Part shown: one piece after another, positions 9,154 to 35,732 of the stretch | Numbering within the stretch: the first letter of the stretch is position 1 | Layout: each line of letters starts with the position of its first letter | Assembly (NCBI GenBank): GCA_963701185.1 | Contig: OY969569.1 | Coordinates: 245,735 to 309,734, forward strand | Direction: 5' to 3' | Source of the DNA: Candidatus Gottesmanbacteria bacterium | GTDB taxonomy: Bacteria > Patescibacteriota > Microgenomatia > UBA10105 > UBA927 | DNA length: 64,000 nt | Notes under the pieces: generated by a model | Databases searched by the model: none | Seen by the model: only the letters and a program-made list of their open reading frames with translations | What the model was told of the DNA's origin: nothing | Program-made: the position numbers and the translations under genes

Positions 9154-10302
9154 ATGCTGATTAAACCCGACATTGCCCGGTTTGCAAAAATTAAAGTCAT
9201 CGGTATCGGCGGCGGCGGCTGCAATGCTATCAACTCCATGATTGCCGGAAGCCAGATAACCGGGGTGGATTTCTTAGGACTGAATACCGATGCTCAGGCG
9301 CTTCTCACCTGTCAGGCGACGACGAAAGTGCAGATCGGAGAAAATCTTACTCGGGGTCTCGGGGCCGGAGGCGATCCGGACATAGGGAAACAGGCCGCGG
9401 AAGAATCGCGCGAGAAACTCAAGGAATACTTGCGGGATGCGGACATGGTATTTTTGACCTGCGGAGAAGGGGGAGGCACCGGAACGGGAGCAACGCCGAT
9501 TGTTGCTGAAATTGCCAAAGAACTCGGGTCCCTCACGGTGGCGGTTGTTACCAAACCGTTCCATTTTGAGGGAACGCGCCGCATGGTGACTGCAGAAGAA
9601 GGCATCATGAATCTCAAGGATAAGGTGGATACGCTTATCGTCATTCCCAACCAGCGGCTTATGGAAGTGATTGATAAAAAAATGACCCTCCTTGACGCCT
9701 TCCGTGTGACAGATTCGGTTCTGGGGCAGGGTGTTCAGGGCATTGCGGACCTTATCACCATGCCGGGTCTCATCAACGTGGATTTTGCCGATGTCCGGAC
9801 CATTATGACCAGTGCCGGAAGTTCCCTTATGGGGATCGGGACCGGCGTCGGAGAAAATAGAGCCGCCACGGCTGCCCGGACCGCCATCGCCTCTCCGCTT
9901 TTGGAGATTTCCATTGACGGGGCGAAGGGCGTCTTATTTAATATTACCGGCGGGCCGGATCTCACGATGGCTGAGGTGGATGAAGCCGCAAAACAGATTG
10001 CCGCCGCAGTTGATCCTGATGCCAACATCATTTTCGGCGCAACCATTGACCAGAATATGGTGGATCAGGTGAAAATTACCGTGATCGCCACGGGATTTGA
10101 TGAAACAAAAAAACGCCTGCGGGAGTTATCCGGCCAGCCCAGCTACAGCACCATGGCCCAGCCGACACAGACCCGCGTGACCCAAACGTCCAACCAGCCC
10201 CAGCCAAAGGCTGGCCAGCCTTTGGCTGGCCCGCGCGACGATGATCTTCCGCCGGAGGAAGACGAATTCGACATCCCCGCATTCCTGCGGCAGAGAAGTT
10301 AG
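9154..10302 (+). CDS. ftsZ: cell division GTPase FtsZ
   Basis: GIGGGGCNAINSM tubulin signature, the T7 loop region, and the C-terminal conserved peptide DIPAFLRQ. Confidence 0.95.
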   Translation: MLIKPDIARFAKIKVIGIGGGGCNAINSMIAGSQITGVDFLGLNTDAQALLTCQATTKVQIGENLTRGLGAGGDPDIGKQAAEESREKLKEYLRDADMVFLTCGEGGGTGTGATPIVAEIAKELGSLTVAVVTKPFHFEGTRRMVTAEEGIMNLKDKVDTLIVIPNQRLMEVIDKKMTLLDAFRVTDSVLGQGVQGIADLITMPGLINVDFADVRTIMTSAGSSLMGIGTGVGENRAATAARTAIASPLLEISIDGAKGVLFNITGGPDLTMAEVDEAAKQIAAAVDPDANIIFGATIDQNMVDQVKITVIATGFDETKKRLRELSGQPSYSTMAQPTQTRVTQTSNQPQPKAGQPLAGPRDDDLPPEEDEFDIPAFLRQRS

Positions 10303-10320
10303 AATCGCGGCGATAATTAG

Positions 10321-10348
10321 TTGTAGTATTTGTAAATACTTCTATAAT
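10321..10348 (+). promoter_or_regulatory. candidate sigma70-like promoter for the GH130 gene cluster (TTGTAG, 16 nt spacer, TATAAT)
   Basis: TTGTAG at 10321-10326 and TATAAT at 10343-10348, lying 7 nt upstream of the ATG at 10355. Confidence 0.35.
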
Positions 10349-10354
10349 AAAAGT

Positions 10355-11449
10355 ATGCCTGCCGCATCCCCTGCTGTACGTAAGAAAGTTTTGAGATGGG
10401 GTGTGTCGCGTGCCGCGGAGCCAGGAAAACGGAAGCAAAAGAAGCAGACAATCAAAACCATTCTTGTTAAGCATGATGAAAATCCGATAATTTTACCGAA
10501 CAGGGAGAACGGATGGGAAGCGTGGCAGACGTTTAATCCTGGGGCAATACTGCTTAATGATAAAATTCATTTTCTGTATCGGGCAATCGGTGAAGACGGG
10601 ATATCCCGGTTGGGGTATGCCGTTTCAAGCGACGGATTCCATATTGATGACCGTTTATCGTATCCGGCGTATGAGCACAAGATAAAAGACAGGGTATATA
10701 CGCTGTATTCATATTTTTCCGGCGGCAGTTGGGGCGGCGCTGAAGATCCGCGCATTGTCCGTGTGGACAATGAAGATACGCTCTATGTCATGTATACAGC
10801 CTGTGATAACGGACTTCGGGTGGGATTGACATCAATTAGCGTCGATGATTTTTTACATAATCGGTGGCGATGGAAGCCGCCGGTTCTGGTTTCGCCGCCA
10901 GGTGAGATTCATAAAAACTGGTTGATTTTTCCTGAAAAAATCCACGGCAAATACGCTATCCTTCACAGTATCAGGCCGGTAATCCAAATAGAATACGTTG
11001 ATAGTCTGAATTTTGACGATACGGCGTACATCCGTAGTTCTTATGGCGGAGGCCCGCGGACGCGATGTTGGGATAAGTGGCTGCGGGGAGCCGGAGCGCC
11101 TCCCATAAAAACTCGGGAGGGTTGGCTTTTGTTTTATCATGCAATAGATGGTGACTGGAGTAAATATAAGGTGGGAGTCATGCTTCTTGATCTTGATGAT
11201 CCGACAAAAATACTCTGCCGCGCCAAAAAACCGATACTTGAACCGACAGAGTCGTATGAAAACAACGGGTACAAATCCGGCGTCGTGTATGTTTCGGGAG
11301 CGGCCGTAAAAAACGGCAATCTTTTCGTGTATTATGGCTGTGCAGACAATTATATCGGCGTTGCGTATGCGAATCTGGACGAATTTGTCGAGATGCTGAA
11401 AAAAGATGCAACCCCGACACTACGCGTAAAGACGTTAAAGAAAAAGTAA
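10355..11449 (+). CDS. GH130-family glycoside hydrolase/phosphorylase (single beta-propeller domain)
   Basis: ATG at 10355. GH130/DUF377-like motifs include NPGAILLNDKIHFLYRA, RLGYAVSSDGFHI, GAEDPRIV, APPIKTREGWLLFYHA and FVYYGCADNYIG. Confidence 0.7.
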   Translation: MPAASPAVRKKVLRWGVSRAAEPGKRKQKKQTIKTILVKHDENPIILPNRENGWEAWQTFNPGAILLNDKIHFLYRAIGEDGISRLGYAVSSDGFHIDDRLSYPAYEHKIKDRVYTLYSYFSGGSWGGAEDPRIVRVDNEDTLYVMYTACDNGLRVGLTSISVDDFLHNRWRWKPPVLVSPPGEIHKNWLIFPEKIHGKYAILHSIRPVIQIEYVDSLNFDDTAYIRSSYGGGPRTRCWDKWLRGAGAPPIKTREGWLLFYHAIDGDWSKYKVGVMLLDLDDPTKILCRAKKPILEPTESYENNGYKSGVVYVSGAAVKNGNLFVYYGCADNYIGVAYANLDEFVEMLKKDATPTLRVKTLKKK

Positions 11450-11453
11450 TATC

Positions 11454-13376
11454 ATGCTTGTTCAACGATTCAATAAAAATCCTATACTGACGCCCAAAAG
11501 TACATATTTTTGGCAGGCGGAGGCAGTTTTTAACGGCTGCCCGGTAAAAAAGGGAGAAAAAACGTATCTCGTGTACAGGGCCCTTTCCTTGCCGCACTTT
11601 CACCGGCTGGGTCAGCAACGGATGCGCGTTTCCAATATCGGCATTGCCGAAAGTTTTGACGGAATCAATTTTTCCAACCACAAACACTTTATTTTTCCGG
11701 AGTACCCATGGGAAAAATTCGGATGTGAAGATCCGCGGGTCACAAAACTCAATGACAAATACTTTATTTTTTATACGGCCCTATCGGAATATCCGCCGCG
11801 TGCTGACGGGATTAAAATTGCCGTGGCTGTCAGCGAGGACATGGAAACCATTAAAGAAAAACACCTCGTGACGACATTCAATTCCAAAGCCATGGCTCTT
11901 TTTCCGGAAATAATCGACGGAAAAATGTGGGCTATTCTGACAGTCCATACCGATCATCCTCCGGCAAAAATTTGTCTTGCATCATTTGACAACGAAAGTG
12001 ATATGTGGTCCCAACATTATTGGGAGGATTGGTACACAGCATTTGAGGATTCTGCATTGCCTCTTCAACGAAGACCTGAAGATCATATTGAGGTTGGCGC
12101 GCCGCCTTTAAAAACCCGTGACGGCTGGTTAGTCATATATTCGTATATTAAAAATTATTTTTCTCCGGAGAGACTCTTCGGATTTGAGGCAGTGTTGCTT
12201 GATTTACATAATCCTTTAAAAATCATTGGGCACACGGATGCGCCCTTTTTAACGCCGGAAGAGTATTATGAGAAAATGGGAATGATTTCGAATGTCATTT
12301 TTCCTTCCGGGGCCTCGATAGAAAATAATACCGTTCATCTTTATTACGGAGCCGCCGATACCACGTGCTGTCTTGTTGATATAAAGCTTGACTATCTGCT
12401 GAGACGGATAATGAAAAAAGATAGAAATCCCATAAAGTTTCAGCGCCAAAAAGAAAATCCGATTATCACCCCCAACCCGGAACATTCGTGGGAATCCAAA
12501 GCAACTCTTAATCCGGGAGCGATCAGTCTTGAGGGTACGATACATCTTCTGTATCGGGCGATGTCGGAAGACAACACGTCTGTTTTTGGTTACGCGAACA
12601 CGCAGGACGGTATTCACCTTGATCATCGTTCACCGCAACCGGTCTATAGTCCGCGGGAGCCTTTTGAACAAAAATTAGTTCCCGGGGGGAACTCCGGCTG
12701 CGAAGATCCCCGGCTTACGCAAATTGATGACAGAATTTATATGTTCTACACTGCGTTTGACGGAAGAAATTTACCCCGGATAGCTGTGACGTGGATATCC
12801 GTGAAGGATTTTCTGCTCCAGGCATGGAATTGGTCAAAACCACTGCTGATCTCATCACCTGATTTTGCCAACAAAAACGCATGTATTTTTCCGGAAAAAA
12901 TTGACGGGAAGTATTTTATTATCCATCGCTGCGGGAATGACATTGATTTTCATGTGTGTTCGGATTTAAATTTTGATGGCATTTCCTGGTTAGAGGAAAA
13001 CCGTTGGATCGCTCCCCGGAGGGGCATGTGGGACGATGAAAAAATAGGACTGGTAGCGCCGCCGCTTAAAACAGAACAGGGATGGATACTTTTTTATCAC
13101 GGGATTTCTTCGGAAGACCGTTTTTATCGGATAGGCGCGTGTTTGCTGGATTTCGAGAACCCTACGAAAATACTTGCGCGATTAGATAATCCAATCTTAG
13201 AACCGGAAACCGAGTATGAAAAAAAAGGAATCGTCCCGAACGTTGTTTTTCCCTGCGGCGCGGTCATACGGGAAAAAACTATTTTTATGTACTACGGCGG
13301 CGGCGATAAAGTCATCGGCGTCGCAACAATTCCGGTAAACGATTTGCTTGAAAGTCTTGAGTTTTATCGATATTAG
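11454..13376 (+). CDS. tandem double GH130-domain protein
   Basis: 640 aa made of two consecutive GH130-like units. Unit 1 is roughly residues 1-320 (NIGIAESFDG, CEDPRV, APPLKTRDGWLVIY, LYYGAADT). Unit 2 is roughly 330-640 (NPGAISLEGTIHLLYRA, GCEDPRLT, APPLKTEQGWILFYHG, MYYGGGDKVIG). Confidence 0.7.
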   Translation: MLVQRFNKNPILTPKSTYFWQAEAVFNGCPVKKGEKTYLVYRALSLPHFHRLGQQRMRVSNIGIAESFDGINFSNHKHFIFPEYPWEKFGCEDPRVTKLNDKYFIFYTALSEYPPRADGIKIAVAVSEDMETIKEKHLVTTFNSKAMALFPEIIDGKMWAILTVHTDHPPAKICLASFDNESDMWSQHYWEDWYTAFEDSALPLQRRPEDHIEVGAPPLKTRDGWLVIYSYIKNYFSPERLFGFEAVLLDLHNPLKIIGHTDAPFLTPEEYYEKMGMISNVIFPSGASIENNTVHLYYGAADTTCCLVDIKLDYLLRRIMKKDRNPIKFQRQKENPIITPNPEHSWESKATLNPGAISLEGTIHLLYRAMSEDNTSVFGYANTQDGIHLDHRSPQPVYSPREPFEQKLVPGGNSGCEDPRLTQIDDRIYMFYTAFDGRNLPRIAVTWISVKDFLLQAWNWSKPLLISSPDFANKNACIFPEKIDGKYFIIHRCGNDIDFHVCSDLNFDGISWLEENRWIAPRRGMWDDEKIGLVAPPLKTEQGWILFYHGISSEDRFYRIGACLLDFENPTKILARLDNPILEPETEYEKKGIVPNVVFPCGAVIREKTIFMYYGGGDKVIGVATIPVNDLLESLEFYRY

Positions 13377-15503: not shown

Positions 15504-16235
15504 ATGAAGGCTGTCAAAACGTTTCTTATCATTGCGGTTTTGAGCCTCGTAGCCGTCACGTCCGCAGTATTGGCGAAAGAGCAGGACGACCGCGGCCCGC
15601 TTACCAAAATTACCTTTATTCATTACAAAAAAGATAAAAATCCGGCAAAGCCAGGGGGAGGCACAAAGCCCGGCTCCACAGCCTGCTACGGGTATTTAGC
15701 CCGCGGCGCAAAATGGAAAACAACGGAGCCGTATATCGTGAACCCGACCAATTCAGAGGGATTAAGTTCATCTCAAGTCTTTAACGCCGTGAGTGCGGGG
15801 GTTCAGGAATGGGATAGTCATCACGCAGGACCGGCAATTTTCGGAACCGGCAGTACCGATTCAAGCGCGGTGTACAACGAGGCGGCGCTGGACAATAAAA
15901 ACGTGGTTGTGTTCGGCGGGGGACTTGCTTCCAATATCATAGCCGTCACCAATGTCTGGGGATATTTCGGCGGTGCGCCGCAAACGAGAGGATTAGTTGA
16001 GTGGGATATGAAATTGAATTCAGTGTTTCAATGGGGCGACGGGGCGACCAACCCTGCTTTGATGGATCTGCAAAATATCGCAACCCATGAGTTGGGCCAC
16101 AGTGCAGGCATGGACGATCTCTATACGACCAGCTGCAACCTGGAAACGATGTACGGCTATTCAACCGAGGGAGACACGATAAAGCGCGATCTCAACACCG
16201 GCGACATCACCGGCCTCCAGGCGTTGTACCAATAA
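15504..16235 (+). CDS. secreted zinc metalloprotease, metzincin (matrixin/snapalysin-like)
   Basis: RBS GGAGGGG; signal peptide; an HELGHSAGMDD zinc-binding motif (HExxHxxGxxD) and a downstream Met-turn-like TMYGY. Confidence 0.7.
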   Translation: MKAVKTFLIIAVLSLVAVTSAVLAKEQDDRGPLTKITFIHYKKDKNPAKPGGGTKPGSTACYGYLARGAKWKTTEPYIVNPTNSEGLSSSQVFNAVSAGVQEWDSHHAGPAIFGTGSTDSSAVYNEAALDNKNVVVFGGGLASNIIAVTNVWGYFGGAPQTRGLVEWDMKLNSVFQWGDGATNPALMDLQNIATHELGHSAGMDDLYTTSCNLETMYGYSTEGDTIKRDLNTGDITGLQALYQ

Positions 16236-16242
16236 GCTTCGG

Positions 16243-16288
16243 GAGAACCAAACAACCCATCAGAAGTTTCCGATGGGCTGGTTTGTTT
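16243..16288. repeat. conserved hairpin-forming intergenic motif, copy 1 (probable bidirectional terminator between convergent genes)
   Basis: GAGAACCAAACAACCCATCAGAAGTTTCCGATGGGCTGGTTTGTTT. It contains an imperfect inverted repeat AACCAAACAACCCATC / GATGGGCTGGTTTGTT, and it is nearly identical to copy 2 over about 40 nt. Confidence 0.55.
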
Positions 16289-16300
16289 AATTAACGTCAA

Positions 16301-16870
16301 TCACTTTACTTTATACGCACCGTATCCAGTTGGGTCCGCGTGAGCAAACCACAGATGTCCGGGTCCGTAACTCGGATCAGTTCCCTGATCCATAATCGTG
16401 GCAAATTGTCCCCAGATACCATATCCGCCCGCGGGTATCAAACTTGGATTTGCCGTATAGTTTCCTACCCAAACAATTTTATAATGCCACACCGCTCCTG
16501 ATCCTCCGGCAACCTTTCCGTTCCATTCATTGTTTTCCCATGCCTGATAGGGCGGATTCGTCCAACCCTCTTTATTTCCGCGGTCCCACTCGGCATTCCA
16601 TTTCATGACCAGTTTATCTTTGGCATATGCGCCGAGATAATCTGCGGGTAATCCTTTTGCAAGTGACCAGCTTTCGCCGGTTCCGTTAAATATTCTGGCC
16701 GTATAGTTGTATCCAAACTCGTTAAATCCGGTACTTGTGCCTTGGACGATTCCCTGATTAATGATTTGTGTAACCACTCCGCTGCTTCCGAGCAAATATG
16801 CAAATACTAAAGCAATGGCAACAAGAAATACCGGCCGTACCGTATTTCCTTTTTTCATTTTAACTTTCAT
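16301..16870 (-). CDS. hypothetical secreted protein (signal peptide, Trp/Gly/Asn-rich)
   Basis: RBS GGAGGTG upstream on the minus strand; N-terminal signal/TM VFLVAIALVFAYLLGSS. Confidence 0.45.
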   Translation of the reverse strand: MKVKMKKGNTVRPVFLVAIALVFAYLLGSSGVVTQIINQGIVQGTSTGFNEFGYNYTARIFNGTGESWSLAKGLPADYLGAYAKDKLVMKWNAEWDRGNKEGWTNPPYQAWENNEWNGKVAGGSGAVWHYKIVWVGNYTANPSLIPAGGYGIWGQFATIMDQGTDPSYGPGHLWFAHADPTGYGAYKVK

Positions 16871-16971: not shown

Positions 16972-17006
16972 GAGAACCAAACAACCCACCGGAAGTTTCC
17001 GATGGG
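16972..17006. repeat. conserved hairpin-forming intergenic motif, copy 2
   Basis: GAGAACCAAACAACCCACCGGAAGTTTCCGATGGG, sitting 3' of minus gene 17026-17889. A perfect 10-bp GC-rich hairpin (CCTACGAGGA ctc TCCTCGTAGG, 16938-16960) lies immediately beside it. Confidence 0.55.
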
Positions 17007-17025
17007 TTGAATGAATAACGAAAAT

Positions 17026-17889
17026 TTACGGAGATACTACCTGTTTACCTGCATGTACATTTGCCTGAACAGAGCTTATACATTCGCCTTGATTTTTGAA
17101 AGATGGGTTAGTAAATTCTTTCCATCCGTCCTTTTTACAATCATCTATTTTTGTCCCGACCCTATGGGCAAAAACTTGAACATTTATGTCGCTACTTTTA
17201 TCCCAACCACCATTACATATTCCGGTAATGGGACCAAGTGAGTTACAGACTTCAGGGTTACTAGATAAACTATTTTGGGGCCAAACAAGCCACCTATCGT
17301 CTGATCCTTGTTGTGTAGTACCACTTAAACCCGCGTTACTTGCATGGTTAAACCAATAATATGAAATTCCTGCTCTCAATGTCCCATCAACAGCGAAGTA
17401 ATATTTATTTCCGCCATCGATTTTAAAATCTAATTTAGTAAAATCATGTTGCCATATTGTACGATCAGCTCCACTTGAGCCTTGGTATGTCAAGGTCGTT
17501 CCAGGATACAAAACCACACTATGAGTGATGTTAGGATTTGAATCATCATTTGTTCCATCAGTTAAATTACCTGATGTTATTTCTGAGATTCCGCCTGTAC
17601 CAGCATATAAACTTATATTGCTAAAGAGGGTTCCTAAAAATTCGGTATTCCCCACACTCCATGTGCGGATGCCTGTTACGACCCACTTCTCTCCAGCTTT
17701 ACCAATAGTAAAATCGTCACCACTCACGTAATCGTTTCCATTCGACCAGGCAACGTTACTTCTTAAAGGTCCAGCAACATTGTTTAAATTTATATTTGGT
17801 AAGCCACGACCTACGACTGGTGGACTAAGTGCAAATACTGGTGTTGCGAGAAATAAAGATGCTACAATTCCAAAAATTATATTTTTCAT
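17026..17889 (-). CDS. secreted protein with conserved C-terminal Cys-x19-Cys tail (CKKDGWKEF...FKNQGECIS)
   Basis: Signal peptide MKNIIFGIVASLFLATPVFA. The C-terminal 30 aa are shared with the protein encoded at 18000-18692. Confidence 0.5.
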   Translation of the reverse strand: MKNIIFGIVASLFLATPVFALSPPVVGRGLPNINLNNVAGPLRSNVAWSNGNDYVSGDDFTIGKAGEKWVVTGIRTWSVGNTEFLGTLFSNISLYAGTGGISEITSGNLTDGTNDDSNPNITHSVVLYPGTTLTYQGSSGADRTIWQHDFTKLDFKIDGGNKYYFAVDGTLRAGISYYWFNHASNAGLSGTTQQGSDDRWLVWPQNSLSSNPEVCNSLGPITGICNGGWDKSSDINVQVFAHRVGTKIDDCKKDGWKEFTNPSFKNQGECISSVQANVHAGKQVVSP

Positions 17890-17932
17890 TTATTTCACCT
17901 CCTTCCCTATAAATTTTTATAACCGATATTTC

Positions 17933-17963
17933 GAACAACCCATCGGATGTTTCCGGTGGGCTG
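17933..17963. repeat. conserved hairpin-forming intergenic motif, copy 3
   Basis: GAACAACCCATCGGATGTTTCCGGTGGGCTG, sitting 3' of minus gene 18000-18692. The stem CCCATCGG/CCGGTGGG is kept with a compensatory/wobble change relative to copy 2. Confidence 0.5.
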
Positions 17964-17999
17964 CATAAAGCAATGCTTTAACTGCAAAATCGTAGTTTA

Positions 18000-18692
18000 T
18001 TAATTTGCCGGCCAATTTTTCTCACCTGTCGCTACGAAGGAAACACAATCTCCTTGGTTTTTAAATACACCAAAATCTTCCCATCCTTCTTTTTTACACT
18101 CATCTTTATTTCCTGGAAGCGCTTCGGTTACGACCACGTTATCTAATACTGGTCCAAAGGCGCCAACAATCTGACTTGCGAACGTTATTGTTGTGCTCGT
18201 TCCTGTAGCTACGAATGAGTAAGTCAAACCTTGTTTCCACTTCATTGGCGATGGATAGTTATTACCTTCAATGGAAGTATCATAACTATAATCTTGGTGA
18301 TTTACCCCATCACTTACTCTAACTACTTTCGGGTTCGGGCTCCAATATGGGTCTGGAGCTGGTAAGTTGCCTGGATTTCCTGATAAATCGAAAGTCACTT
18401 TGTAAGTAGCTCCGGGCACTGTCGTAATAGTTTGACTGATTGATCCCGGTGTAAAACCATTTAAATCAATACTTCTGCTATCATCTGACGCTTCCCAAAG
18501 ACCGCCAATATAATCTACGCTATCCGAATTCACGGTCCAACCGATTATATCCGTAGCCCCTGAATAAAGAGTTATAAAGGTTGATCCAGGATTGGTTCCA
18601 GTTTCAAAACTACCATTAGAAATTAACGATGCTGCATAAACTGTTGTTGCGGACAATAAAAACAGTGCAGTTCCTAAAATTATTTTTTTCAT
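18000..18692 (-). CDS. secreted DUF642 / choice-of-anchor-C-like domain protein with C-terminal Cys-x17-Cys tail
   Basis: Signal peptide. LISNGSFETG...IIGWTV...SIDLNG...ISQTITTVPGATYKVTFDLSGNP matches the DUF642 pattern. The C-terminus KDECKKEGWEDFGVFKNQGDCVSFV is paralogous to that of 17026-17889. Confidence 0.55.
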   Translation of the reverse strand: MKKIILGTALFLLSATTVYAASLISNGSFETGTNPGSTFITLYSGATDIIGWTVNSDSVDYIGGLWEASDDSRSIDLNGFTPGSISQTITTVPGATYKVTFDLSGNPGNLPAPDPYWSPNPKVVRVSDGVNHQDYSYDTSIEGNNYPSPMKWKQGLTYSFVATGTSTTITFASQIVGAFGPVLDNVVVTEALPGNKDECKKEGWEDFGVFKNQGDCVSFVATGEKNWPAN

Positions 18693-18730
18693 TTTTCACC
18701 TCCTCTCTTTTTTTAATTTGCACAAAAAAT

Positions 18731-18746
18731 CCCGTCACGTGACGGG
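18731..18746. promoter_or_regulatory. perfect 16-bp palindrome CCCGTCACGTGACGGG in a divergent promoter region, abutting a TATAAT
   Basis: It sits between the divergent 18000-18692 (-) gene and ileS (+). TATAAT at 18748-18753 is 1 nt downstream. Confidence 0.3.
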
Positions 18747-18867
18747 ATATAATGAGAAACGACTGAGAAATGACACTGCAAATGTCATGGGCCCATAATT
18801 GCAGATATCGGCTGGAATGTCAACATATCAATAATAGCGCTTCTGCTGATATAATAAAGAAATCAGT

Positions 18868-21690
18868 ATGGCAAAGACGCAGACATTCAAACCGGTGACG
18901 GCAGGAGTGAATTTTCCCGAGCTCGAAGAGCGGGTGATCACATACTGGAAAGAGAATAAGATTTTTGAGAAATCCGTCGAGAGCAGGCCTGCGGATAAAA
19001 CATGGACGTTTCTGGACGGCCCGCCGTTTATTACCGGTCTCCCGCACTACGGAACATTACTTTCCAGCATCCCCAAAGATTTATTCCCGAGATATTGGAC
19101 GATGAAAGGGTACCGCGTGCGGCGCGTGTGGGGATGGGATTGCCATGGATTACCGGCGGAAAACAAAGTGGAAACCAAACTGCATCTCAAACGGAAAAAA
19201 GATATTGAGAGCGGGATCGGCGTCCAGAAATTCATTGACGAGTGCAAAACCTACGTTTCGGAAGTTTCCGGCGAATGGGAATGGTACGTTCTGCATATCG
19301 GCCGGTGGGTGGATTTCAAAAATGCCTATAAGACGATGGATACCGATTACATGGAGACAGTGATGTGGGTATTCAAACAGATGTTTGAGAAGAAATTAAT
19401 TTATAAGGGCCTGCGCGTGTCTCTCTACTGCCCGCACGACGTGACACCGATTTCCAATTTTGAAGTGGCGATGGACCCGGATAATTACAAGGAAATTACC
19501 GAGCCGGCGGCGGTCTTCATGTACCAGTCGGAAGAAGCGAAGGATACCTACTATCTTGCGTGGAGTACGACGCCGTGGAATAAAATCGCCACGCCCGCCC
19601 TTGCTGTTAACCCAAAACTGCAATACGTGAAAGTCCAGCAGGGGAATGAAAAATATATTTTAGCTAAATCGACCCTCAGGATGCTCTCCGATAAGCCGTA
19701 TAAAATTCTTGAGGAGTTTGCGGGGCGTACGCTGGTCGGCAAAAGATTTGAGCCGCACTACAACTTTTATACAATCGACGAAGGCAAAAAAGCATTCGTC
19801 ATTATCCCCGGAGATTTCGTGACCGCCGACGAGGGGACGGGGATCGTCACGATTGCCGCTTACGGCGAGGAAGATCTTGCGGTCATGCAAAAAGAGAATA
19901 TTCAAATTGTCCAGCATGTGGACGAAGAAGGCATCATAAAACCGGAGGTCCCCAAGTGGGCCGGGAAATATTATCTTGATGTGGATCCTCTTGTGATTGA
20001 AGATTTAAAGAAACGGGGGCTCATCTACCGCGTGGACGAATATACCCATCCGGTACCGACGTGCTGGCGCTGCCACACGCGCCTCATGTACGCGCCGCAG
20101 AACGCGTGGTACGTTCGGGTGCAGTCCTTAAAGGCAAAAATGAAGGCGACCAATGAGAAGGTGAACTGGGTTCCCGCGCACTTCAAGTACGGCAGATATC
20201 TCAAGAGTTTGGAGAACGCGCCGGACTGGTGCATCTCACGCAGCCGCTACTGGGGTTCGCCGGTTCCGGTGTGGGAATGCAAAAACGGGCATCTGTTCGT
20301 GCCGGGATCTATGAAAGAATTAGAGGAAGCGTCCGGTATGAAGATCACGGATTTGCATAAACCCGGCATCGACGCAGTAACAGTAACCTGCAAAGAGTGC
20401 AAAGAAAAAGCAATCCGCGTGTCAGAGGTGTTGGACAGCTGGATAGAAGCAGGCAGCGCTCTGTTTGCCGAACGGCACTTCCCCTTTAACAAAGACGTAA
20501 AACTTGAAGCATTCTTCCCTCCGGATTTCATCGTCGAGTATACCGGCCAGATCCGTGCGTGGTTTTACGTCCTGCATGTCATAGCCTGCGCCCTCTATGA
20601 TTCGCACGCATTTAAAAACGTCCTGGTGACCGGCGTTATTTTGGGTACGGACGGCAGGAAAATGAGCAAGAACTACAGTAATTATCCGGATCCTAAAGAA
20701 ACGCTTCTTACATACGGCGGGGATGCGCTGCGGCTGTATTTATTGGGGAGCCCGGTCATGCACGGAGAGGATATCCGCATTTCGGAACTTGAGTATAGGA
20801 ACCAGGTGAGGGGCATGCTCTTGCTTTTATGGAATGTGTATAACTTTTTCGTGACGTACGCCGCGATTGATACATGGACGCCGGAAAAATCGCCGGATAG
20901 TAAAAATGTACTGGACCGATGGATCGTTTCGAGATTAAACAGCACGATTGCCGATATCACCGAAAAAGGGTATGAGACATATGATACGCCGGTTATCGTG
21001 TCCGTCGCGTGGGCATTCATGCAGGACTTGTCTTTATGGTACGTGCGAAGGATCCGCGACCGCGTTGGGCCGACTGTCCCGGCGGGAAAAGATAAAAACG
21101 ATGCCTATCAGACATTGTGGCAGGTTCTTACCACGTATACAAAAATCCTTGCGCCGCTTATTCCGTTTGTGACGGAGGAAATATATCGGAATCTTACCGG
21201 AGAAGAGTCTGTACATTTGACTCTCTGGCCGGAGTCAGGGAGTGTGGATGCCGCATTGGAAAAAGAAATGAATCTTGCCCGCCAGGTTGTTGAAAAAGCG
21301 CACGCCATACGTAAAGCTGAAAAACTGAAAGTACGCCAGCCGCTGGCGCTTCTGACCGCGGTTACTCCCGTGGGGTTGTCGGAGGATGTCCGGCGTGTTA
21401 TTGCAGAAGAGGTCAATGTAAAGAAGGTAACCAATACGGTCGGGGAGTTGAAAGTGACATTAGATCTGGAATTGACTGATCAGCTGAAAAATGAAGGCGC
21501 CGCGCGGGAGCTCGTCCGCGACATTCAGAAGATGAGAAAAGAAAAAGGTTGTACAATAGATGCGCATATCACGCTGGTGTTGCCTGGCGACGATCAATCG
21601 CTATCGAAAGACCTTTTGGCATATATACAAAAAGAAACACTTGCGGATACCATTACATGGGGCGACGCACTCACCATATCGACTGGATAG
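18868..21690 (+). CDS. ileS: isoleucyl-tRNA synthetase, type 2 (eukaryote/archaeal-like)
   Basis: FLDGPPFITGLPHYG resembles eukaryotic-type IleRS FYDGPPFATGLPHYGH. WCISRSRYWGSPVPVW is present. GRKMSKNYSNYPDP matches the type-2 KMSK...NYPDP pattern. Confidence 0.8.
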   Translation: MAKTQTFKPVTAGVNFPELEERVITYWKENKIFEKSVESRPADKTWTFLDGPPFITGLPHYGTLLSSIPKDLFPRYWTMKGYRVRRVWGWDCHGLPAENKVETKLHLKRKKDIESGIGVQKFIDECKTYVSEVSGEWEWYVLHIGRWVDFKNAYKTMDTDYMETVMWVFKQMFEKKLIYKGLRVSLYCPHDVTPISNFEVAMDPDNYKEITEPAAVFMYQSEEAKDTYYLAWSTTPWNKIATPALAVNPKLQYVKVQQGNEKYILAKSTLRMLSDKPYKILEEFAGRTLVGKRFEPHYNFYTIDEGKKAFVIIPGDFVTADEGTGIVTIAAYGEEDLAVMQKENIQIVQHVDEEGIIKPEVPKWAGKYYLDVDPLVIEDLKKRGLIYRVDEYTHPVPTCWRCHTRLMYAPQNAWYVRVQSLKAKMKATNEKVNWVPAHFKYGRYLKSLENAPDWCISRSRYWGSPVPVWECKNGHLFVPGSMKELEEASGMKITDLHKPGIDAVTVTCKECKEKAIRVSEVLDSWIEAGSALFAERHFPFNKDVKLEAFFPPDFIVEYTGQIRAWFYVLHVIACALYDSHAFKNVLVTGVILGTDGRKMSKNYSNYPDPKETLLTYGGDALRLYLLGSPVMHGEDIRISELEYRNQVRGMLLLLWNVYNFFVTYAAIDTWTPEKSPDSKNVLDRWIVSRLNSTIADITEKGYETYDTPVIVSVAWAFMQDLSLWYVRRIRDRVGPTVPAGKDKNDAYQTLWQVLTTYTKILAPLIPFVTEEIYRNLTGEESVHLTLWPESGSVDAALEKEMNLARQVVEKAHAIRKAEKLKVRQPLALLTAVTPVGLSEDVRRVIAEEVNVKKVTNTVGELKVTLDLELTDQLKNEGAARELVRDIQKMRKEKGCTIDAHITLVLPGDDQSLSKDLLAYIQKETLADTITWGDALTISTG

Positions 21691-28704: not shown

Positions 28705-30006
28705 ATGTACGATAGATTACATATTACTCAAGCTAAAATGATAGAAAACAGATTATTGAATAAATTATTTATTAATACTTCGAGCCAAATTGTTGCGAAA
28801 ATAGTAACAGTTATTTTGGGATTTTTGACGATTAGCCTTTTAACACGTTATCTCGGTGTGGAAAAGTATGGAATATATAATTTAGTTTTCGCGTATCTTG
28901 CATTTTTTGGAATTTTTGCTGATTTTGGCCTGCAGCTAACTCTTGTGCGAGATTTATCGAGTGACACAAAATCTGCCGAAAAGTTGAAATCCAGTTATTT
29001 TTCGCTTAAAGTGATTTTCACTTTTGTTTCAATATTGTTAGCTCTTATTACGCTCATATTTTTCCCTTACTCACAAACGATAAAGATGTCAATACTTGTT
29101 GGGTCCCTCGCAGTAGGAGCTGGTCAGATGAATGCCTACGGTGCTTCCGCACTTCAGTCAAAGGTTAAGCTCGATCTTGTCGCGCTTCTGGAAGTAATTA
29201 ATCGCATTGCGACAGTAATAGCAATCATTATTTTTGTTCTATTGCACCGTGGATTATATGCAATTATTCTTTCAGTTCTTATAGGTAACATACTTAGCAC
29301 GTTATTAAATATTTACTTAACACCTGATTTTTTCCGTTTAACTTCTATACCCTCGTTCGACTTGATTAAAAAAATAATTAAAGTTTCATTTCCCGTGGGT
29401 ATTACATCTTTGTTATCCGTACTTTATTTTAAAGTTGATACGTTGATGCTATCAGTGATGAAATCGACGGTTGACGTTGGTATATACAGTCTTTCCTACA
29501 AGTTGTTCGAAAATATTATAATGCTATGGCTGTTTTATATGGCTAGTTTATATCCTTTGATGGCTGGTTATATTAACAAGAATGATACTAAAAACCTTGT
29601 TTTAATACTAAAGACATCGATTATAGTACTTTCAGTATTTGTTTTAGTTATTCTATCAGTCGGATATTTCTTCGCGCCTCTCGTAATTGATATCCTTGGT
29701 GGGAAAAATTTTATTGAAAGCATTTTACCGTTTAGAGTATTATTGATTGCACTGCCTTTCGTGTTTATGAATAATATTTTCTATTACCTATTTCTATCGT
29801 TCTCGAAAATTAAGATAATATTCTGGGTTTTGATCAGTTCTTTAGTCATTAATTTATTAATTAATATGTTTCTTATTCCTCGTTATGGCTATATAGGAAC
29901 CAGCGCATCAACTGTGCTGACCGAGTTTTTAGTGAGTATACTCTATTGTGTATTTTTTCTGAAAATGAGGTTGCTTAGCTTTCAAACTGCCCCGAATTAT
30001 AAGTAA
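28705..30006 (+). CDS. polysaccharide/O-antigen flippase (Wzx, MOP superfamily)
   Basis: About 12 TM helices and a PST-family N-terminus (IVAKIVTVILGFLTISLLTRYLGVEKYGIYNLVFAYLAFFGIFADFGLQ). Very low GC. Confidence 0.7.
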   Translation: MYDRLHITQAKMIENRLLNKLFINTSSQIVAKIVTVILGFLTISLLTRYLGVEKYGIYNLVFAYLAFFGIFADFGLQLTLVRDLSSDTKSAEKLKSSYFSLKVIFTFVSILLALITLIFFPYSQTIKMSILVGSLAVGAGQMNAYGASALQSKVKLDLVALLEVINRIATVIAIIIFVLLHRGLYAIILSVLIGNILSTLLNIYLTPDFFRLTSIPSFDLIKKIIKVSFPVGITSLLSVLYFKVDTLMLSVMKSTVDVGIYSLSYKLFENIIMLWLFYMASLYPLMAGYINKNDTKNLVLILKTSIIVLSVFVLVILSVGYFFAPLVIDILGGKNFIESILPFRVLLIALPFVFMNNIFYYLFLSFSKIKIIFWVLISSLVINLLINMFLIPRYGYIGTSASTVLTEFLVSILYCVFFLKMRLLSFQTAPNYK

Positions 30007-30007
30007 T

Positions 30008-30739
30008 GTGAATCCATTCAAAATATTTAATAACAAGATATCATATGCCGGTATTTCCTCCGATATGGATAAGGAGTTTAATAGAATTTATAGCATTACG
30101 AAGAGATATACAATGACATCGATCGAGAGGATGTACTCAATGTATAAAGCAACAGAATATGTCATAAACGCTCGTATAGTCGGTGATGTAGTTGAATGCG
30201 GGATTTGGAGAGGTGGAAGTTCCATGATTGCAGCGATAACCATGCGGAAGCTACATAATTTGCAGAAGAAAATTTACCTATACGATACGTACGCCGGAAT
30301 GACTAAACCAAGCAAGTTTGATAAATCAGTAGGTAGTGATAACCACGCCACCGATTATTGGAATAAAAATAAATCTGGTGATATCAACAAATGGTGCTAT
30401 TCATCACTTGATGAAGTAAAATCCAACCTGTATAAAACTGGTTACCCTAAAAATAAACTACTGTTCATAGAAGGCGACGTTGAGAAAACTATACCGAAGA
30501 TTATACCGAAGAAAATCTCACTTTTGAGATTGGATACCGATTGGTATAAATCAACCTACCATGAGCTGAATTATTTGTATCCCTTACTAACGCCTGGCGG
30601 TGTACTGATTCTTGATGATTACGGTCATTGGCGAGGTGCGAGGAGGGCGACAGACGAGTATTTTAAAAGAAAGGGAATACATATTTTTTTAATCAGAATC
30701 GATTACACAGGAAGAATTGCAATAAAATATGGCAAATAA
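30008..30739 (+). CDS. TylF/MycF-family (macrocin-O-methyltransferase-like) sugar O-methyltransferase
   Basis: GTG start at 30008. VVECGIWRGGS, LRLDTDWYKSTYHELNYLYPLLTPGGVLILDDYG is the TylF-family (PF05711) pattern. Confidence 0.6.
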   Translation: MNPFKIFNNKISYAGISSDMDKEFNRIYSITKRYTMTSIERMYSMYKATEYVINARIVGDVVECGIWRGGSSMIAAITMRKLHNLQKKIYLYDTYAGMTKPSKFDKSVGSDNHATDYWNKNKSGDINKWCYSSLDEVKSNLYKTGYPKNKLLFIEGDVEKTIPKIIPKKISLLRLDTDWYKSTYHELNYLYPLLTPGGVLILDDYGHWRGARRATDEYFKRKGIHIFLIRIDYTGRIAIKYGK

Positions 30740-31394
30740 GAACATCTCATGGTTTTCGCCAGATAAGTTAATAAAGGACTTACAGTGGGATTATCTATCG
30801 GAAGCGTCTAAGTTTGCGCGAGGAGAGATGCTAGATGTAGGATGCGGTAAAATGCCTTATAAAGCTATTTTTATGCCTAGAGTTAGTAAATATATCGGCA
30901 TTGATAAGTATAACCGGGATGCTGACATTAAGAAAGACTTTTTGAAAGCAACGATTTTTGATAAATCGTTCGACACTGTACTATGTACACAAGTTTTAGA
31001 GCATATTCCTGAACCACAAAAGTTTTTAGAAAAGATTAACAAGGTGTTAAAAAAGAATGGCGTTCTTATTTTAACAGTGCCTTTCACGGGCCATCTACAC
31101 GAGGTTCCCCGAGACTATTACCGCTATACAAAGTATGGGCTTCGGTATATGCTCAAGAATGCGAATTTTAGAATCGTCTATATTAAGGCGGAAGGGAATT
31201 GGATTACCTCAATAGGACAGGAGATTATTTCTTACATCGAGCCTACGTTTAACCGTTTTTTACTTAAGTATCCCAAACGATTATTTCAATTAGGCGTTCT
31301 TTTACTGACTAAAGGTTTTTCAAAGCTGCCTGAACGATTTACTAAATCACAATATAGCGTTATTAACTATATTGTCGTTGCCAAAAAGCAGTAA
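30729..31394 (+). CDS. class I SAM-dependent methyltransferase
   Basis: Motif I MLDVGCGKMPY and a post-I FDTVLCTQVLEHI region, as in Methyltransf_11/23. Confidence 0.6.
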   Translation: MANKNISWFSPDKLIKDLQWDYLSEASKFARGEMLDVGCGKMPYKAIFMPRVSKYIGIDKYNRDADIKKDFLKATIFDKSFDTVLCTQVLEHIPEPQKFLEKINKVLKKNGVLILTVPFTGHLHEVPRDYYRYTKYGLRYMLKNANFRIVYIKAEGNWITSIGQEIISYIEPTFNRFLLKYPKRLFQLGVLLLTKGFSKLPERFTKSQYSVINYIVVAKKQ

Positions 31395-31397
31395 TCC

Positions 31398-32549
31398 ATG
31401 AAAATTTTGTTTATACGAAACGCTGATAGGTTTAGCGGTTCCGAAAAATATGATATTAACTTATTCTCGGAGTTTATCAAGTACCCTTCACTCAACGTAT
31501 ATTTTTTAACGAATTTAAAATTTTTTGCCAGACGAGCATCACAACTCGGAGTAACAACTAAGGTTATTTCATGGGGCTCAGAGGGAATTGGAACAAAAAA
31601 GCAATTACTATTAGCTCTTACAAAGCTCCCAATAATTCTTCCGAGATATATCTCGATAATTCATAAGTTTGAAAAGAATGGACGTTTTGATCTCATTTGT
31701 CTTCAATCGATGACAGAGAAGATATTTCTTACTCCGATACTTAAGATACAGGGATACAAGATACTTTGGACCGAACAAGGGCCAATTTATGCAACTCAGA
31801 TGTCAAAAGTAATTAAGTTTTTATATAGGCAGGTAAGCATTTTCGTCGATAAAATACTTGCGGTATCCAAGGATACAAAAAAGGATCTTATTCGTGGCGG
31901 AGTGTCTGCAAAAAAAATTACTGCGATTTATATTGGGATAGACATAAATAAATTTAAGCCGTTAAGTACGATTAAAATTAATACCTTAAAAAGGAGGTTT
32001 CAAATTAGTCGGAACTCTTTCGTTCTGGGTTATCTAGGGACAGTGACTGATGAAAAAGGCATAGAAGACTTTGTTTTAGTATCAAATATGTTGTTTAAAC
32101 AAGATAAGAATTTTCATTTTGTTATTATTGGGGATGGACCATTACTTCCATGGGTGAAACAGTCTATAAAAAGGTTAAAAATGACAAAGAATTACATGTG
32201 TAGTGGTTTTGTTGAAGATGTTACTAAATATTTAGGCGTTATAGATATATTATTTTTGCCCACACGTCATTACGAAGGTCTCCCTTTAGCCATATTAGAG
32301 GCACAATCAATGGGTAAGATAGTTATAACCAGCACGATGGGCGGCAATCATGAAATTGTTCAGAATGGTATAAATGGTTTTCTCTTTAGCGGCCTGAATA
32401 AAGCCTCCATTGTTAAACGTATCATCACCATGCGTCTTTCCAAATCAAACATGTTAGAGTTGAACAGGCAGGCGCGTAAGAATATAATGAAACGATTCAA
32501 TATTGAAGTTCAAAAGAAGAAATTCGTTCAATTTCTCCAAAACATATGA
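31398..32549 (+). CDS. glycosyltransferase family 4
   Basis: GT4 C-terminal motif EGLPLAILEAQSMGKIVITSTMGGNHEIVQNGINGFLF. Confidence 0.75.
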   Translation: MKILFIRNADRFSGSEKYDINLFSEFIKYPSLNVYFLTNLKFFARRASQLGVTTKVISWGSEGIGTKKQLLLALTKLPIILPRYISIIHKFEKNGRFDLICLQSMTEKIFLTPILKIQGYKILWTEQGPIYATQMSKVIKFLYRQVSIFVDKILAVSKDTKKDLIRGGVSAKKITAIYIGIDINKFKPLSTIKINTLKRRFQISRNSFVLGYLGTVTDEKGIEDFVLVSNMLFKQDKNFHFVIIGDGPLLPWVKQSIKRLKMTKNYMCSGFVEDVTKYLGVIDILFLPTRHYEGLPLAILEAQSMGKIVITSTMGGNHEIVQNGINGFLFSGLNKASIVKRIITMRLSKSNMLELNRQARKNIMKRFNIEVQKKKFVQFLQNI

Positions 32550-33625
32550 TTATCGGTGTAGATGCGGGGGCATTGTCCGTACGTGATGACCGCCTGAAGG
32601 TGGGCGTGTATCGCGTCACGTTAAATCTGTTGCGTGAGCTCGGGAAAATCGATACAACAAATGAATACCGCCTCTATACTTTTTTGCCTATTCCTGCGCC
32701 ACAGATGAAAGAATTCGGCCCGCGGATGAAAAACGTGATCGTGCGGCCTGTGATCGGCTGGTCCATGATCCAGGTACCCATTGAGCTGCGGCGCCATCCT
32801 GTTGATGTTTTTTTAGGGTTATCCCAAATGATACCGTTTTCCTCAGCCCGTAATATCGGTTTCGTATATGACCTCGGATTTTTGCGGTACCCTGGTGCAT
32901 ATCCCGGGTCGCTTGCACGTCTGGAGGCGCAGACAAGACAGTTGGTCAAGCGATCGGACCATATTATTACCATTTCCAAATCGGCTGAATCAGATATTGT
33001 CAACGCGTACGGAATAGACAAAAAACGCATAACGGTTAACTATCCCGGGATAGACCACAGGTTTACGGCACGCGGCGCCAAACATAAGGGAAAACCGTAT
33101 ATCCTGTATGTCGGTGCACTCAAGCGCGGGAAAAATATCCCGTTTGCTATCCGTGCATTTAAAAAATTTTTGGACGGCAGCAAGAAACAGTATGATTTTT
33201 TATTGGTCGGCGGTGATTATTGGGCAGACAAAACAATTCCGCACATAATAGAGGAGCTGGGATTGTGGGATAAGGTAAAATTGGCAGGGTTTGTTCCCGA
33301 TTCTGATTTGCCTACCTATTACCGCGGGGCCAGCGCGCTTTTTCTTACATCTCTCTGGGAGGGGTTTTGCCTACCCGCTACCGAAGCTATGAAAAGCGGC
33401 TGTCCCATCGTTTATGCCCGGACCGGATCCCTGCCGGAGATTGTTGGCGATGCAGGATTGATATTTGCCAAGGGAGACGAAACCGAAGCGGCCGACGCAC
33501 TTGCAAAGATCACTTCCACCGCTTTACTGCGGAAGCAATTGGTCAGGGCCGGCATAGAGCGGAGTAAGCAGTTTACCTGGCGTGCGTTTGCACAAAGCGT
33601 CCACCGCATCATTGCCAAATCATGA
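32546..33625 (+). CDS. glycosyltransferase family 4
   Basis: EGFCLPATEAMKSGCPIVYARTGSLPEIVGDAGLIF. GC returns to about 50% from here on. Confidence 0.75.
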   Translation: MIIGVDAGALSVRDDRLKVGVYRVTLNLLRELGKIDTTNEYRLYTFLPIPAPQMKEFGPRMKNVIVRPVIGWSMIQVPIELRRHPVDVFLGLSQMIPFSSARNIGFVYDLGFLRYPGAYPGSLARLEAQTRQLVKRSDHIITISKSAESDIVNAYGIDKKRITVNYPGIDHRFTARGAKHKGKPYILYVGALKRGKNIPFAIRAFKKFLDGSKKQYDFLLVGGDYWADKTIPHIIEELGLWDKVKLAGFVPDSDLPTYYRGASALFLTSLWEGFCLPATEAMKSGCPIVYARTGSLPEIVGDAGLIFAKGDETEAADALAKITSTALLRKQLVRAGIERSKQFTWRAFAQSVHRIIAKS

Positions 33626-35717: not shown

Positions 35718-35732
35718 TGATATAATGGGACA

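Follow-up and report, generated by a model that had tools for sequence, protein, structure and literature searches.

The DNA analysed here, a stretch of 64,000 nucleotides (hereafter the window) from contig OY969569.1 of a Candidatus Gottesmanbacteria bacterium, carries two neighbouring genes, referred to as gene A and gene B, which lie on the same strand with a gap of 110 bp and encode secreted proteins ending in a common module with two cysteines. A first-pass annotation of the window had described them as two adjacent secreted proteins with a shared C-terminal tail, one of them bearing a DUF642 domain, and had proposed that the tail is an undescribed sorting, anchoring or surface attachment tag of an organism resembling the candidate phyla radiation (CPR). 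The open reading frames (ORFs) and the tail strings quoted there are correct as given. The tail, its occurrence in other genomes, its predicted fold and its possible roles are described below.

The two genes and their common tail

The likeness of the two proteins resides in the tail alone. BLASTP of A against B returned a sole alignment, between residues 236-274 of A and 185-220 of B (20 of 39 positions identical, E 5e-8), and a comparison by hhalign of the profile of the A family with that of the B family (112 and 74 sequences) again aligned only the tail, over 48 columns with a probability of 98% and an E-value of 2.2e-13. Since only the tails align, A and B are unrelated outside them. The description of the tail as a two-cysteine module stands; the spacing of Cys-x(17-19)-Cys given with it was counted one too high, there being 16 residues between the cysteines in B (C199-C216), 18 in A (C251-C270) and 21 in close relatives of A. 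The DNA of the two tails differs at many wobble positions. A recent gene conversion, which was considered as well, is rejected for this reason, and what preserves the likeness is taken to be protein-level selection.

Protein B is a bona fide member of the DUF642 / choice-of-anchor C family, as had been proposed, and lies over both curated cutoffs: PF04862 (DUF642) of Pfam-A scores 81.2 bits (cutoff 27, E 9.3e-23, profile positions 2-156 of 157) and TIGR04362 (choice_anch_C) of NCBIfam 142.9 bits (cutoff 120, profile positions 2-157 of 157). No Pfam or NCBIfam family was found in protein A, and the tails of A and B are unmatched by Pfam-A and NCBIfam. The N-termini of both proteins are putative Sec-type signal peptides; that of B, as read from the translation, shows a basic n-region, a hydrophobic core and a cleavage-type V-Y-A motif. 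The only two cysteines of B lie in its tail, and A has four. A profile hidden Markov model (HMM) of the module scores 83 bits on residues 190-230 of B, a value inflated by B being a seed member, and 56 bits on A, the module of which is a divergent variant without the ATGGKNPP end. The two tails end in ...GEKNWPAN and ...AGKQVVSP, and the consensus in ...GGKNPPAG. The coordinates of the features are collected in Table 1.

Table 1. Features of genes A and B and of their flanks (positions of the window; aa, amino acids).
Feature	Position	Strand	Description	Basis
Gene B	18000..18692	-	230-aa secreted DUF642 / choice-of-anchor C protein with C-terminal two-Cys module	ORF
Signal peptide of B	18633..18692	-	aa 1-20, MKKIILGTALFLLSATTVYA	predicted by reading the translation
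DUF642 / choice-of-anchor C domain of B	18129..18626	-	aa 23-188	PF04862 and TIGR04362
Two-Cys module of B	18003..18125	-	aa 190-230, EALPGNKDECKKEGWEDFGVFKNQGDCVSFVATGEKNWPAN	module HMM
Gene A	17026..17889	-	287-aa secreted protein: unannotated beta-rich domain with two-Cys module	ORF
Signal peptide of A	17830..17889	-	aa 1-20, MKNIIFGIVASLFLATPVFA	predicted by reading the translation
N-terminal beta-rich domain of A	17158..17814	-	aa 26-244, end ...GWDKSSDINVQVFAHRV (closing sequence also written ...GWDKSSDINVQVFA)	strands in AlphaFold model
Two-Cys module of A	17044..17157	-	aa 245-282, GTKIDDCKKDGWKEFTNPSFKNQGECISSVQANVHAGK	BLASTP, hhalign, module HMM
Terminator-like hairpin with T-run	16972..17009	-	17 nt past the stop of A	
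Promoter-like site upstream of B	18795..18823	-	TTGACA-17-AATTAT with TG	consensus scan

No terminator-like site lies between B and A, and the two genes may therefore form one transcript. The promoter-like site upstream of B is weak, since such sites are rarer in the real sequence than in shuffles. A GC-rich hairpin followed by TTTTT (18729-18748, minus strand) is found in the leader of B, downstream of the promoter-like site and ahead of the start codon (18692), and could be an attenuator or a chance match. The hairpin that follows gene A has a near-identical copy at 16243-16280 (minus strand), after the gene at 16301-16870 (minus strand). The copies, of 35-38 nt with T-runs, read CCCATCGGAAACTTC[TGA/CGG]TGGGTTGTTTGGTTCTC; they differ at three positions, one of them close to the stem's 5' end and the others in the 3' arm, each keeps 12 predicted pairs, and 0 such matches were obtained in 100 shuffles. 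They may have arisen by duplication of a 3' cassette or be a repeated element of small size.

Fold, distribution and deployment of the module

The module is about 40 residues long, with the consensus LPTSKDQCKNGGWxxxGVFKNQGDCVSFVATGGKNPPAG. Its signature consists of the invariant residues C, W, F, G and C together with K, G, K, N, Q, D, V and S, each conserved at 90% or more, and both cysteines are invariant across the 146 best cluster representatives, the set on which the counts of deployment given below are based. A disulfide between these cysteines is probable from the sequences, because the cysteines are invariant, their counts are even and the proteins are extracytoplasmic. The hydrophilic character that had been ascribed to the tail is evident from its mean Kyte-Doolittle value of -0.7 to -0.9; the best 15-residue window reaches 0.35-0.62, and that of the PEP-CTERM tail of an A homologue (P0272) 1.84. 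Structure prediction, advised in the first-pass annotation, yielded a confident three-helix mini-fold: the AlphaFold2 model of the module, from an alignment of 38 sequences, has a mean pLDDT of 87.6 and three short helices on KDxC, GWxx and QGDCVSFVA (KDEC, GWED and QGDCVSFVA in B), and the full-length AlphaFold model of A (pLDDT 91) has helices at residues 248-251, 255-258 and 267-282, on the same motifs as B. A fold search of the module model against the PDB found no match, and Foldseek of the full-length A model against the PDB gave weak and inconsistent beta-sandwich matches (TM-score <0.3).

Within-family conservation of the module and of the attached domain is 65 and 53%, respectively, in B, and 61 and 60% in A; the idea that the module is exceptionally conserved was dropped, as its lead over the passenger is modest. 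The hexapeptide SFVATG is present at two places in B, at residues 159-164 in the DUF642 domain (18213-18230) and at residues 218-223 in the module (18036-18053), which is probably due to chance.

A profile built from the two tails retrieved 46 short proteins with the near-constant sequence LPTSKDQCKNGGWKTYGVFKNQGDCVSFVATGGKNPPAG. An alignment of 38 trimmed sequences and 43 positions (alignment A3) was then searched with HMMER against 1.84 billion protein cluster representatives, of which 6,554 matched at E<=1e-3 and 2,143 at E<=1e-10. A scan of GTDB, with one genome per species, gave more than 565 confirmed loci, a lower bound; the best 77 of these, all in metagenome-assembled genomes (MAGs), were used for the analyses of loci. 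Carriers are spread over soil and groundwater bacteria and belong to Thermoleophilia (Thermoleophilaceae, Solirubrobacterales, Gaiellaceae), Acidimicrobiia, the CPR lineages Saccharimonadia and Daviesbacteria, Acidobacteriota, Chloroflexia and Dehalococcoidia of the Chloroflexota, and a few Proteobacteria. The tail is thus widespread and extends far past two paralogues, and it is not specific to CPR, in contrast to the tag of a CPR-like organism that had been envisaged: Actinomycetota account for the majority of the genome matches listed. Several module loci per MAG are common, with up to four module ORFs in 20 kb, and the modules of Saccharimonadia and Actinomycetota share 80-89% identity with the consensus. 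That the similarity of the two tails is trivial, either a chance match of low-complexity sequence or a feature private to two recent paralogues, has next to no probability: a six-frame regular expression search of the window did find two copies in total, those of A and B, but the E-values of the pairwise and profile-profile comparisons, the number of cluster representatives carrying the module (far past chance), the unrelated N-terminal domains and the synonymous divergence between the tails all speak against it.

The novelty claimed for the tail is upheld by searches of several resources. Pfam-A found no match in the 38 trimmed modules at E<=10; among the 146 best carriers, Pfam-A and NCBIfam revealed no family that is common to the carriers and covers the tail; the PDB sequences searched with the tail profile gave a best E-value of 0.28, i.e. 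noise; and the motif strings were absent from the literature searched. No known profile matches the tail, which almost certainly represents an autonomous, widespread and as yet unnamed extracytoplasmic mini-domain. The two outcomes that the first-pass annotation said would weaken the idea of a novel tag, a restriction to two paralogues and a match to a known domain, have thus not come about. The novelty is that of an undescribed domain family and not of a new principle, as modular surface-retention and docking domains are of a kind already known; the module is related to none of these, whether by sequence or by predicted fold, and is present in very large numbers in phyla that have received little study.

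A search of 2.9 million viral contigs gave a single match, in a carrier that is neither a lysin nor a tail fibre. This protein of 194 aa (L085, 3551-4135 of IMGVR_UViG_3300045996_002969) has a signal peptide and belongs to the 'QDSVTG' family, a common one among carriers. Its gene is flanked by terminase-like and portal/capsid-protease-like genes, runs on the strand opposite to theirs and resembles a moron-type insertion into phage or prophage DNA.

The module ends within five residues of the C-terminus in 134 of the 146 representatives (92%). Tandem copies, separated by Pro/Thr-rich or acidic linkers, are found in 13 of them, ten with two copies and three with three; one protein (P0051) contains in order DUF642, He_PIG repeats and three modules. 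Internal copies occur as well (L022, P0111). Of the best 120 B homologues roughly a quarter, as estimated by eye and not by count, continue past the module in long His/Lys/Thr-rich extensions; the low-complexity extensions are of 50-70 residues (many of the B homologues P0365-P0433), and His/Asp/Gly-rich ones are present in a few A homologues (P0214, P0216, P0220, P0223, P0225, P0226). Such extensions, which may serve metal or polymer binding, imply that the module needs no free C-terminus. At the other extreme are stand-alone proteins composed of a signal peptide, a linker and the module (P0020, P0026, P0030, P0033, P0037). In a Saccharimonadia MAG (L007, JBGPNM010000005.1, 9302-10129) the module follows the second transmembrane (TM) segment of an S26-like signal peptidase, which has a GSMQPAI motif and matches PF10502 with 22.1 bits, just under the cutoff of 22.9; judging from its sequence this protein may be a peptidase with a docking tag.

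A crude test for a hydrophobic stretch indicative of a signal peptide was positive in 89 of the 116 Met-starting top representatives. Most partners of the module have no annotated family; those that do (Pfam/NCBIfam) belong to more than 20 Pfam families, among them DUF642, TSP3, He_PIG, FG-GAP, Calx-beta, PKD, Big and beta-propellers, which are typical extracellular adhesin or lectin modules, and choice-of-anchor C and choice-of-anchor R domains also accompany the module (NCBIfam). Three module-bearing representatives among P0047-P0192 match NF045500, 'Omp28-related selenoprotein', with a best E-value of 2e-19.

Homologues of A and B illustrate how the module alternates with other C-terminal anchors. 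Of 251 A-family homologues, the tails of the best 120 were inspected. The module terminates 54 of these, usually as the long-loop variant CK.GGW..LVR.DG..FKNQGDC[IV][QS]Y.NTGK; six end in PEP-CTERM (P0270, P0272, P0297-P0299, P0302; three flagged by PF07589), five in a hydrophobic helix with RRR (P0208, P0209, P0212, P0221, P0258), and many stop a few residues past the domain without a tail. The N-terminal domain of A thus behaves as an unnamed family of the 'choice-of-anchor' type. Among the best 120 B homologues, 112 carry the module, which makes DUF642-plus-module an established lineage; relatives of B named 'choice-of-anchor C family protein' by NCBI occur in Daviesbacteria, Minisyncoccia, Dehalococcoidia and Chloroflexi, the nearest named ones being from Daviesbacteria and Minisyncoccia. 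DUF642 is the passenger of B and not the tail; in B and these 112 relatives it is followed by the two-Cys module, versus a PEP-CTERM, LPXTG or type IX secretion system (T9SS) signal elsewhere. No TM-type anchor was found after the module in the A homologues, B homologues and 146 representatives sampled.

Possible roles of the module

The first-pass annotation had suggested that the tail serves anchoring or surface attachment. By analogy with the PEP-CTERM and TM-plus-Arg anchors whose position it occupies in A homologues, this is the most plausible function of the module, in the form of a folded binding domain; a processed signal is improbable. The closest mechanistic analogues are the dockerins and the wall-binding modules such as SLH and LysM, although the module is a member of none of these. 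Dockerins resemble it in being small, mostly C-terminal and largely helical, in occurring on many secreted proteins, sometimes in duplicate, and in their Pro/Thr-rich linkers; a dockerin acts as the plug by which a protein is joined to a scaffold through its cohesin partner, and a mechanism of this sort is favoured for the module by analogy. The module differs in lacking the duplicated Ca-binding F-hand, calcium being replaced by what would be a disulfide, and PF00404 (dockerin) matched none of the 38 modules (E<=10) and none of the 146 carriers. SLH, LysM, GW, CWB2 and choline-binding repeats are likewise modular, repeatable and usually terminal, and retain proteins non-covalently on the monoderm envelope. 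The module has no sequence or fold similarity to them, is much smaller, occurs also in diderms and is nearly absent from viral contigs; no wall-binding family matched the tail, the Choline_bind_1 match in A (E 0.39) falling at residues 155-170, outside it.

According to the mechanism proposed here, the module would fold alone into three short helices stapled by the disulfide; it is attached, mostly C-terminally and often through Pro/Thr-rich or acidic linkers, to unrelated secreted beta-rich domains of lectin-, adhesin- or propeller-like type. After Sec export and removal of the signal peptide it would stay on the mature protein, with the residues ...FKNQGDCVSFVATGGK kept, and bind a conserved partner: a polymer of the envelope, or else a protein that acts as receptor or scaffold. 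Binding of the partner would keep the carrier at or near the cell surface, and the module would in this manner do the work of the PEP-CTERM, LPXTG or TM-plus-Arg anchors found in homologues of other lineages. The chances that the module is such a non-covalent docking or retention domain, kept on the mature protein, are judged to be about even.

Docking is supported by the surface context of B homologues in two of four CPR contexts. In Daviesbacteria GCA_028715175.1 (L079, 1454-8741) and in a second locus (L083, 3580-9436), the B homologue is accompanied by a giant adhesin, a membrane protein of 300-310 aa and a sortase. The adhesin of L079 ends in a canonical LPSTG signal and lies next to the sortase, which therefore has a substrate of its own; hence the module and the sortase are read as co-members of a surface-structure gene cluster, and not the module as a sortase substrate. 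A sigma-70-family sigma factor (Sigma70_r2 and r4_2) and a DUF5667 protein precede the cluster of L079.

Several points weigh against a docking or retention domain. Everything said here on the function of the module, its ligand, partner and localisation included, is inference. Carriers include monoderms, diderms and Dehalococcoidia, so that a single common envelope ligand is hard to name. A generic wall-binding domain might be borrowed by phages more often than the one match in 2.9 million viral contigs indicates. The conservation of the module exceeds that of its passenger by a small margin only, with no sign of exceptional constraint, and the C-terminal position of 92% of the top matches would be explained equally well by a terminal signal.

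A more elaborate reading, possible and yet doubtful, is that the FKNQGDC module is the tag of an unrecognised surface-display system common to Patescibacteria, Thermoleophilia, Acidimicrobiia and Chloroflexota. The tag would be a C-terminal domain, folded and non-hydrophobic, with a dedicated partner that recognises it; receptors, scaffold proteins, cross-linking enzymes and processing proteases are all candidates for the partner, and the logic of such a system would be comparable to that of dockerin and cohesin or of the T9SS C-terminal domain (CTD), with unrelated components. For CPR bacteria that live as episymbionts, it is even conceivable that the module serves to attach them to actinobacterial hosts in which it is likewise present.

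Clearly less probable than docking or retention, yet the foremost of its rivals, is a ligand-targeting domain, similar to a tiny carbohydrate- or matrix-binding module, directed at an external substrate or a host surface; the candidate ligands are polymers from plants or microbes, minerals or metals, and the host cell surface in the case of epibiotic CPR bacteria. The Pro/Thr-rich linkers and tandem copies do resemble the architecture of carbohydrate-binding modules, DUF642 and other partners are lectin-like beta-sandwiches, and an environmental ligand would account more readily for a spread over soil bacteria both monoderm and diderm. Metals or minerals could be bound by the His-rich extensions past the module. 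The Saccharimonadia in culture live as episymbionts on Actinomycetota, and the close likeness of the modules of these two groups to the same consensus also fits a targeting role. However, no similarity to carbohydrate-binding modules was seen in Pfam or PDB, the stand-alone proteins of signal peptide and module have nothing to target, the copy on the membrane peptidase-like protein does not fit, and the alternation with PEP-CTERM and TM anchors in the A family points to association with the cell.

A true C-terminal sorting signal, recognised and removed by a dedicated enzyme or secretion machine, is improbable. The models for such a signal are LPXTG with sortase, PEP-CTERM with exosortase, MYXO-CTERM with myxosortase, and the folded T9SS CTD cleaved by PorU. 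The eight attributes of tripartite C-terminal sorting signals formulated by Haft served as a yardstick, and the module displays five of them in full and a sixth in large part. The latter is a position near the C-terminus (attribute 1), from which 13 multi-copy, some internal and some extended cases depart; the five are several copies per genome (2; two in the window, several loci per MAG and several copies per locus), invariant signature residues (3), signal peptides on the carriers (6; A, B and the 89 representatives counted above), carriers unrelated outside the signal (7; the tail-only alignment of A and B and the range of partner families) and homologues without the signal or with another one (8; the A family, with its tail-less and PEP-CTERM members). 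Tripartite signals also resemble the module in the inclusion of Cys among their invariant residues and in their presence on choice-of-anchor domains, and the sortase gene adjoining B homologues in two CPR genomes may be counted on the same side.

The remaining two attributes, a hydrophobic segment of TM length (4) and a terminal cluster of 2-5 basic, mostly Arg, residues (5), are absent, the former from the module by Kyte-Doolittle analysis and the latter from the module tails; the known mechanism, whereby the membrane retains the signal so that an enzyme can act on it, is founded on these two. Instead, the module comprises about 40 hydrophilic residues predicted to be folded, with two cysteines 16-21 residues apart and not one in a short motif. 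A cleaved signal does not readily account for copies that are in tandem, internal, followed by extensions or stand-alone, and in L007 the module sits on a protein that is already embedded in the membrane. The analogy with sortase and exosortase substrates drawn in the first-pass annotation is not borne out on these grounds.

Nor did the processing enzyme expected to co-occur with the tail come to light. All-against-all clustering of the ORFs of the 77 loci revealed no conserved neighbouring enzyme gene, the clusters consisting only of an antisense shadow ORF, lineage-specific arrays of NTF2/SnoaL-like proteins in Thermoleophilia and generic ABC ATPases; the window neighbours have no homologues in the 77 loci except an aminoacyl-tRNA synthetase, isoleucyl-tRNA synthetase (IleRS); and a tblastn search of the window with two CPR sortases and their cluster partners gave no match to any of them, no sortase being encoded there. 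The sortase of L079, as described above, has its own LPSTG substrate adjacent to it.

The T9SS CTD shows that a non-hydrophobic, folded sorting signal is possible, and is similar to the module in its C-terminal position on many unrelated secreted proteins, including those with choice-of-anchor domains. With about 70-100 residues it forms an Ig-like beta-sandwich, and only Bacteroidota that bear a T9SS possess it, whereas the module has about 40 residues, is predicted to be all-helical, occurs mainly in Actinomycetota, CPR and Chloroflexota and is found also in tandem; the Pfam/NCBIfam matches of the modules and carriers included no T9SS CTD family.

Slightly less probable still is a module with no targeting role, acting as a stabilising cap or as a self-association element for oligomerisation or cross-linking; copies might, for example, pair with each other or be cross-linked through the invariant Lys and Gln to build a surface layer. 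Small helical units stapled by a disulfide are typical of oligomerisation pegs, the FKNQGDC loop has invariant K, N, Q and D, and the many module paralogues per genome could build assemblies by module-module contacts. On the other hand, many A homologues are tail-less, from which it follows that the module is not needed to stabilise the attached domain, and a lone transglutaminase-core gene, in L079, has uvrB, uvrA and two small ORFs between it and the module gene and seems to be there incidentally.

Thousands of module-bearing secreted proteins are found in lineages with almost no experimental cell biology, such as CPR/Patescibacteria, Thermoleophilia, Acidimicrobiia, Dehalococcoidia and soil Acidobacteriota. 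As the module stands in place of PEP-CTERM and membrane anchors, it is likely to be an alternative means of surface retention or docking outside the cell. Naming and profiling it would annotate many 'hypothetical' surface proteins and give a handle on the partner through phylogenetic profiling, and its 40 residues suit nuclear magnetic resonance and binding assays. If the partner is a dedicated machine, the module would define a new class among the prokaryotic protein-sorting or display systems.

Genomic surroundings

The neighbours of A and B in the window include a GH130 pair, an M10-like metalloprotease, a 189-aa membrane-anchored protein, IleRS, RodA/FtsW, signal peptidase I and, assigned by eye, a ParB-like protein. 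The window resembles part of a Patescibacteria (CPR) chromosome from an organism with a small genome. Inspection by eye of the first 60 residues of each ORF further indicated a division and cell-wall cluster and genes for IleRS, GatA/B, DnaE and ATP synthase.

The 189-aa protein, encoded at 16301-16870 (minus strand), has an N-terminal membrane anchor or signal and is rich in W, G, Y and N. Its gene lies with A and B in a patch of lower GC content (43%, versus about 48-52% in the flanks); it matches no Pfam or NCBIfam family and has no homologue near other module genes. On the plus strand, 15504-16235 encodes a secreted, metalloprotease-like protein of 243 aa, in which matrixin (PF00413, 30.6 bits) covers the zinc-site half only; a weak match to NF041905, 'myxosortase-dependent metalloprotease', is far below threshold.

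IleRS (18868-21690, plus strand) is divergently adjacent to the module gene of the window, and in five Acidimicrobiia loci (L039, L042, L043, L052, L058) a module gene is divergent from a related class-I aminoacyl-tRNA synthetase. This adjacency, which amounts to one orthologous locus and the window, is probably a coincidence. In Thermoleophilia (L002, L004, L012, L029, L044, L055 and 10 more loci), tandem arrays of up to nine proteins of about 130-140 aa are situated by module genes, often at less than 100 bp. These proteins appear NTF2/SnoaL-like by eye and have no signal peptides; similar arrays were not seen in the 9 CPR loci sampled.

The GH130 (mannoside phosphorylase-like) pair lies at 10241-13376 (plus strand), about 5 kb from gene B, and a similar pair in GCA_009772315.1 (L082, 11952-15751) lies about 3 kb from a B homologue, which suggests local synteny among related genomes. 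A surface-polysaccharide cluster occupies 28705-39000 of the window. It encodes a Polysacc_synt flippase, TylF-type and other methyltransferases, three glycosyltransferases of family GT4 and one of GT2, PMT_2-like proteins and a Wzy_C/O-antigen-ligase-like protein, and could supply a surface polymer. The GC content of its first 4 kb is 34-36%, against about 47% elsewhere, suggesting horizontal acquisition.

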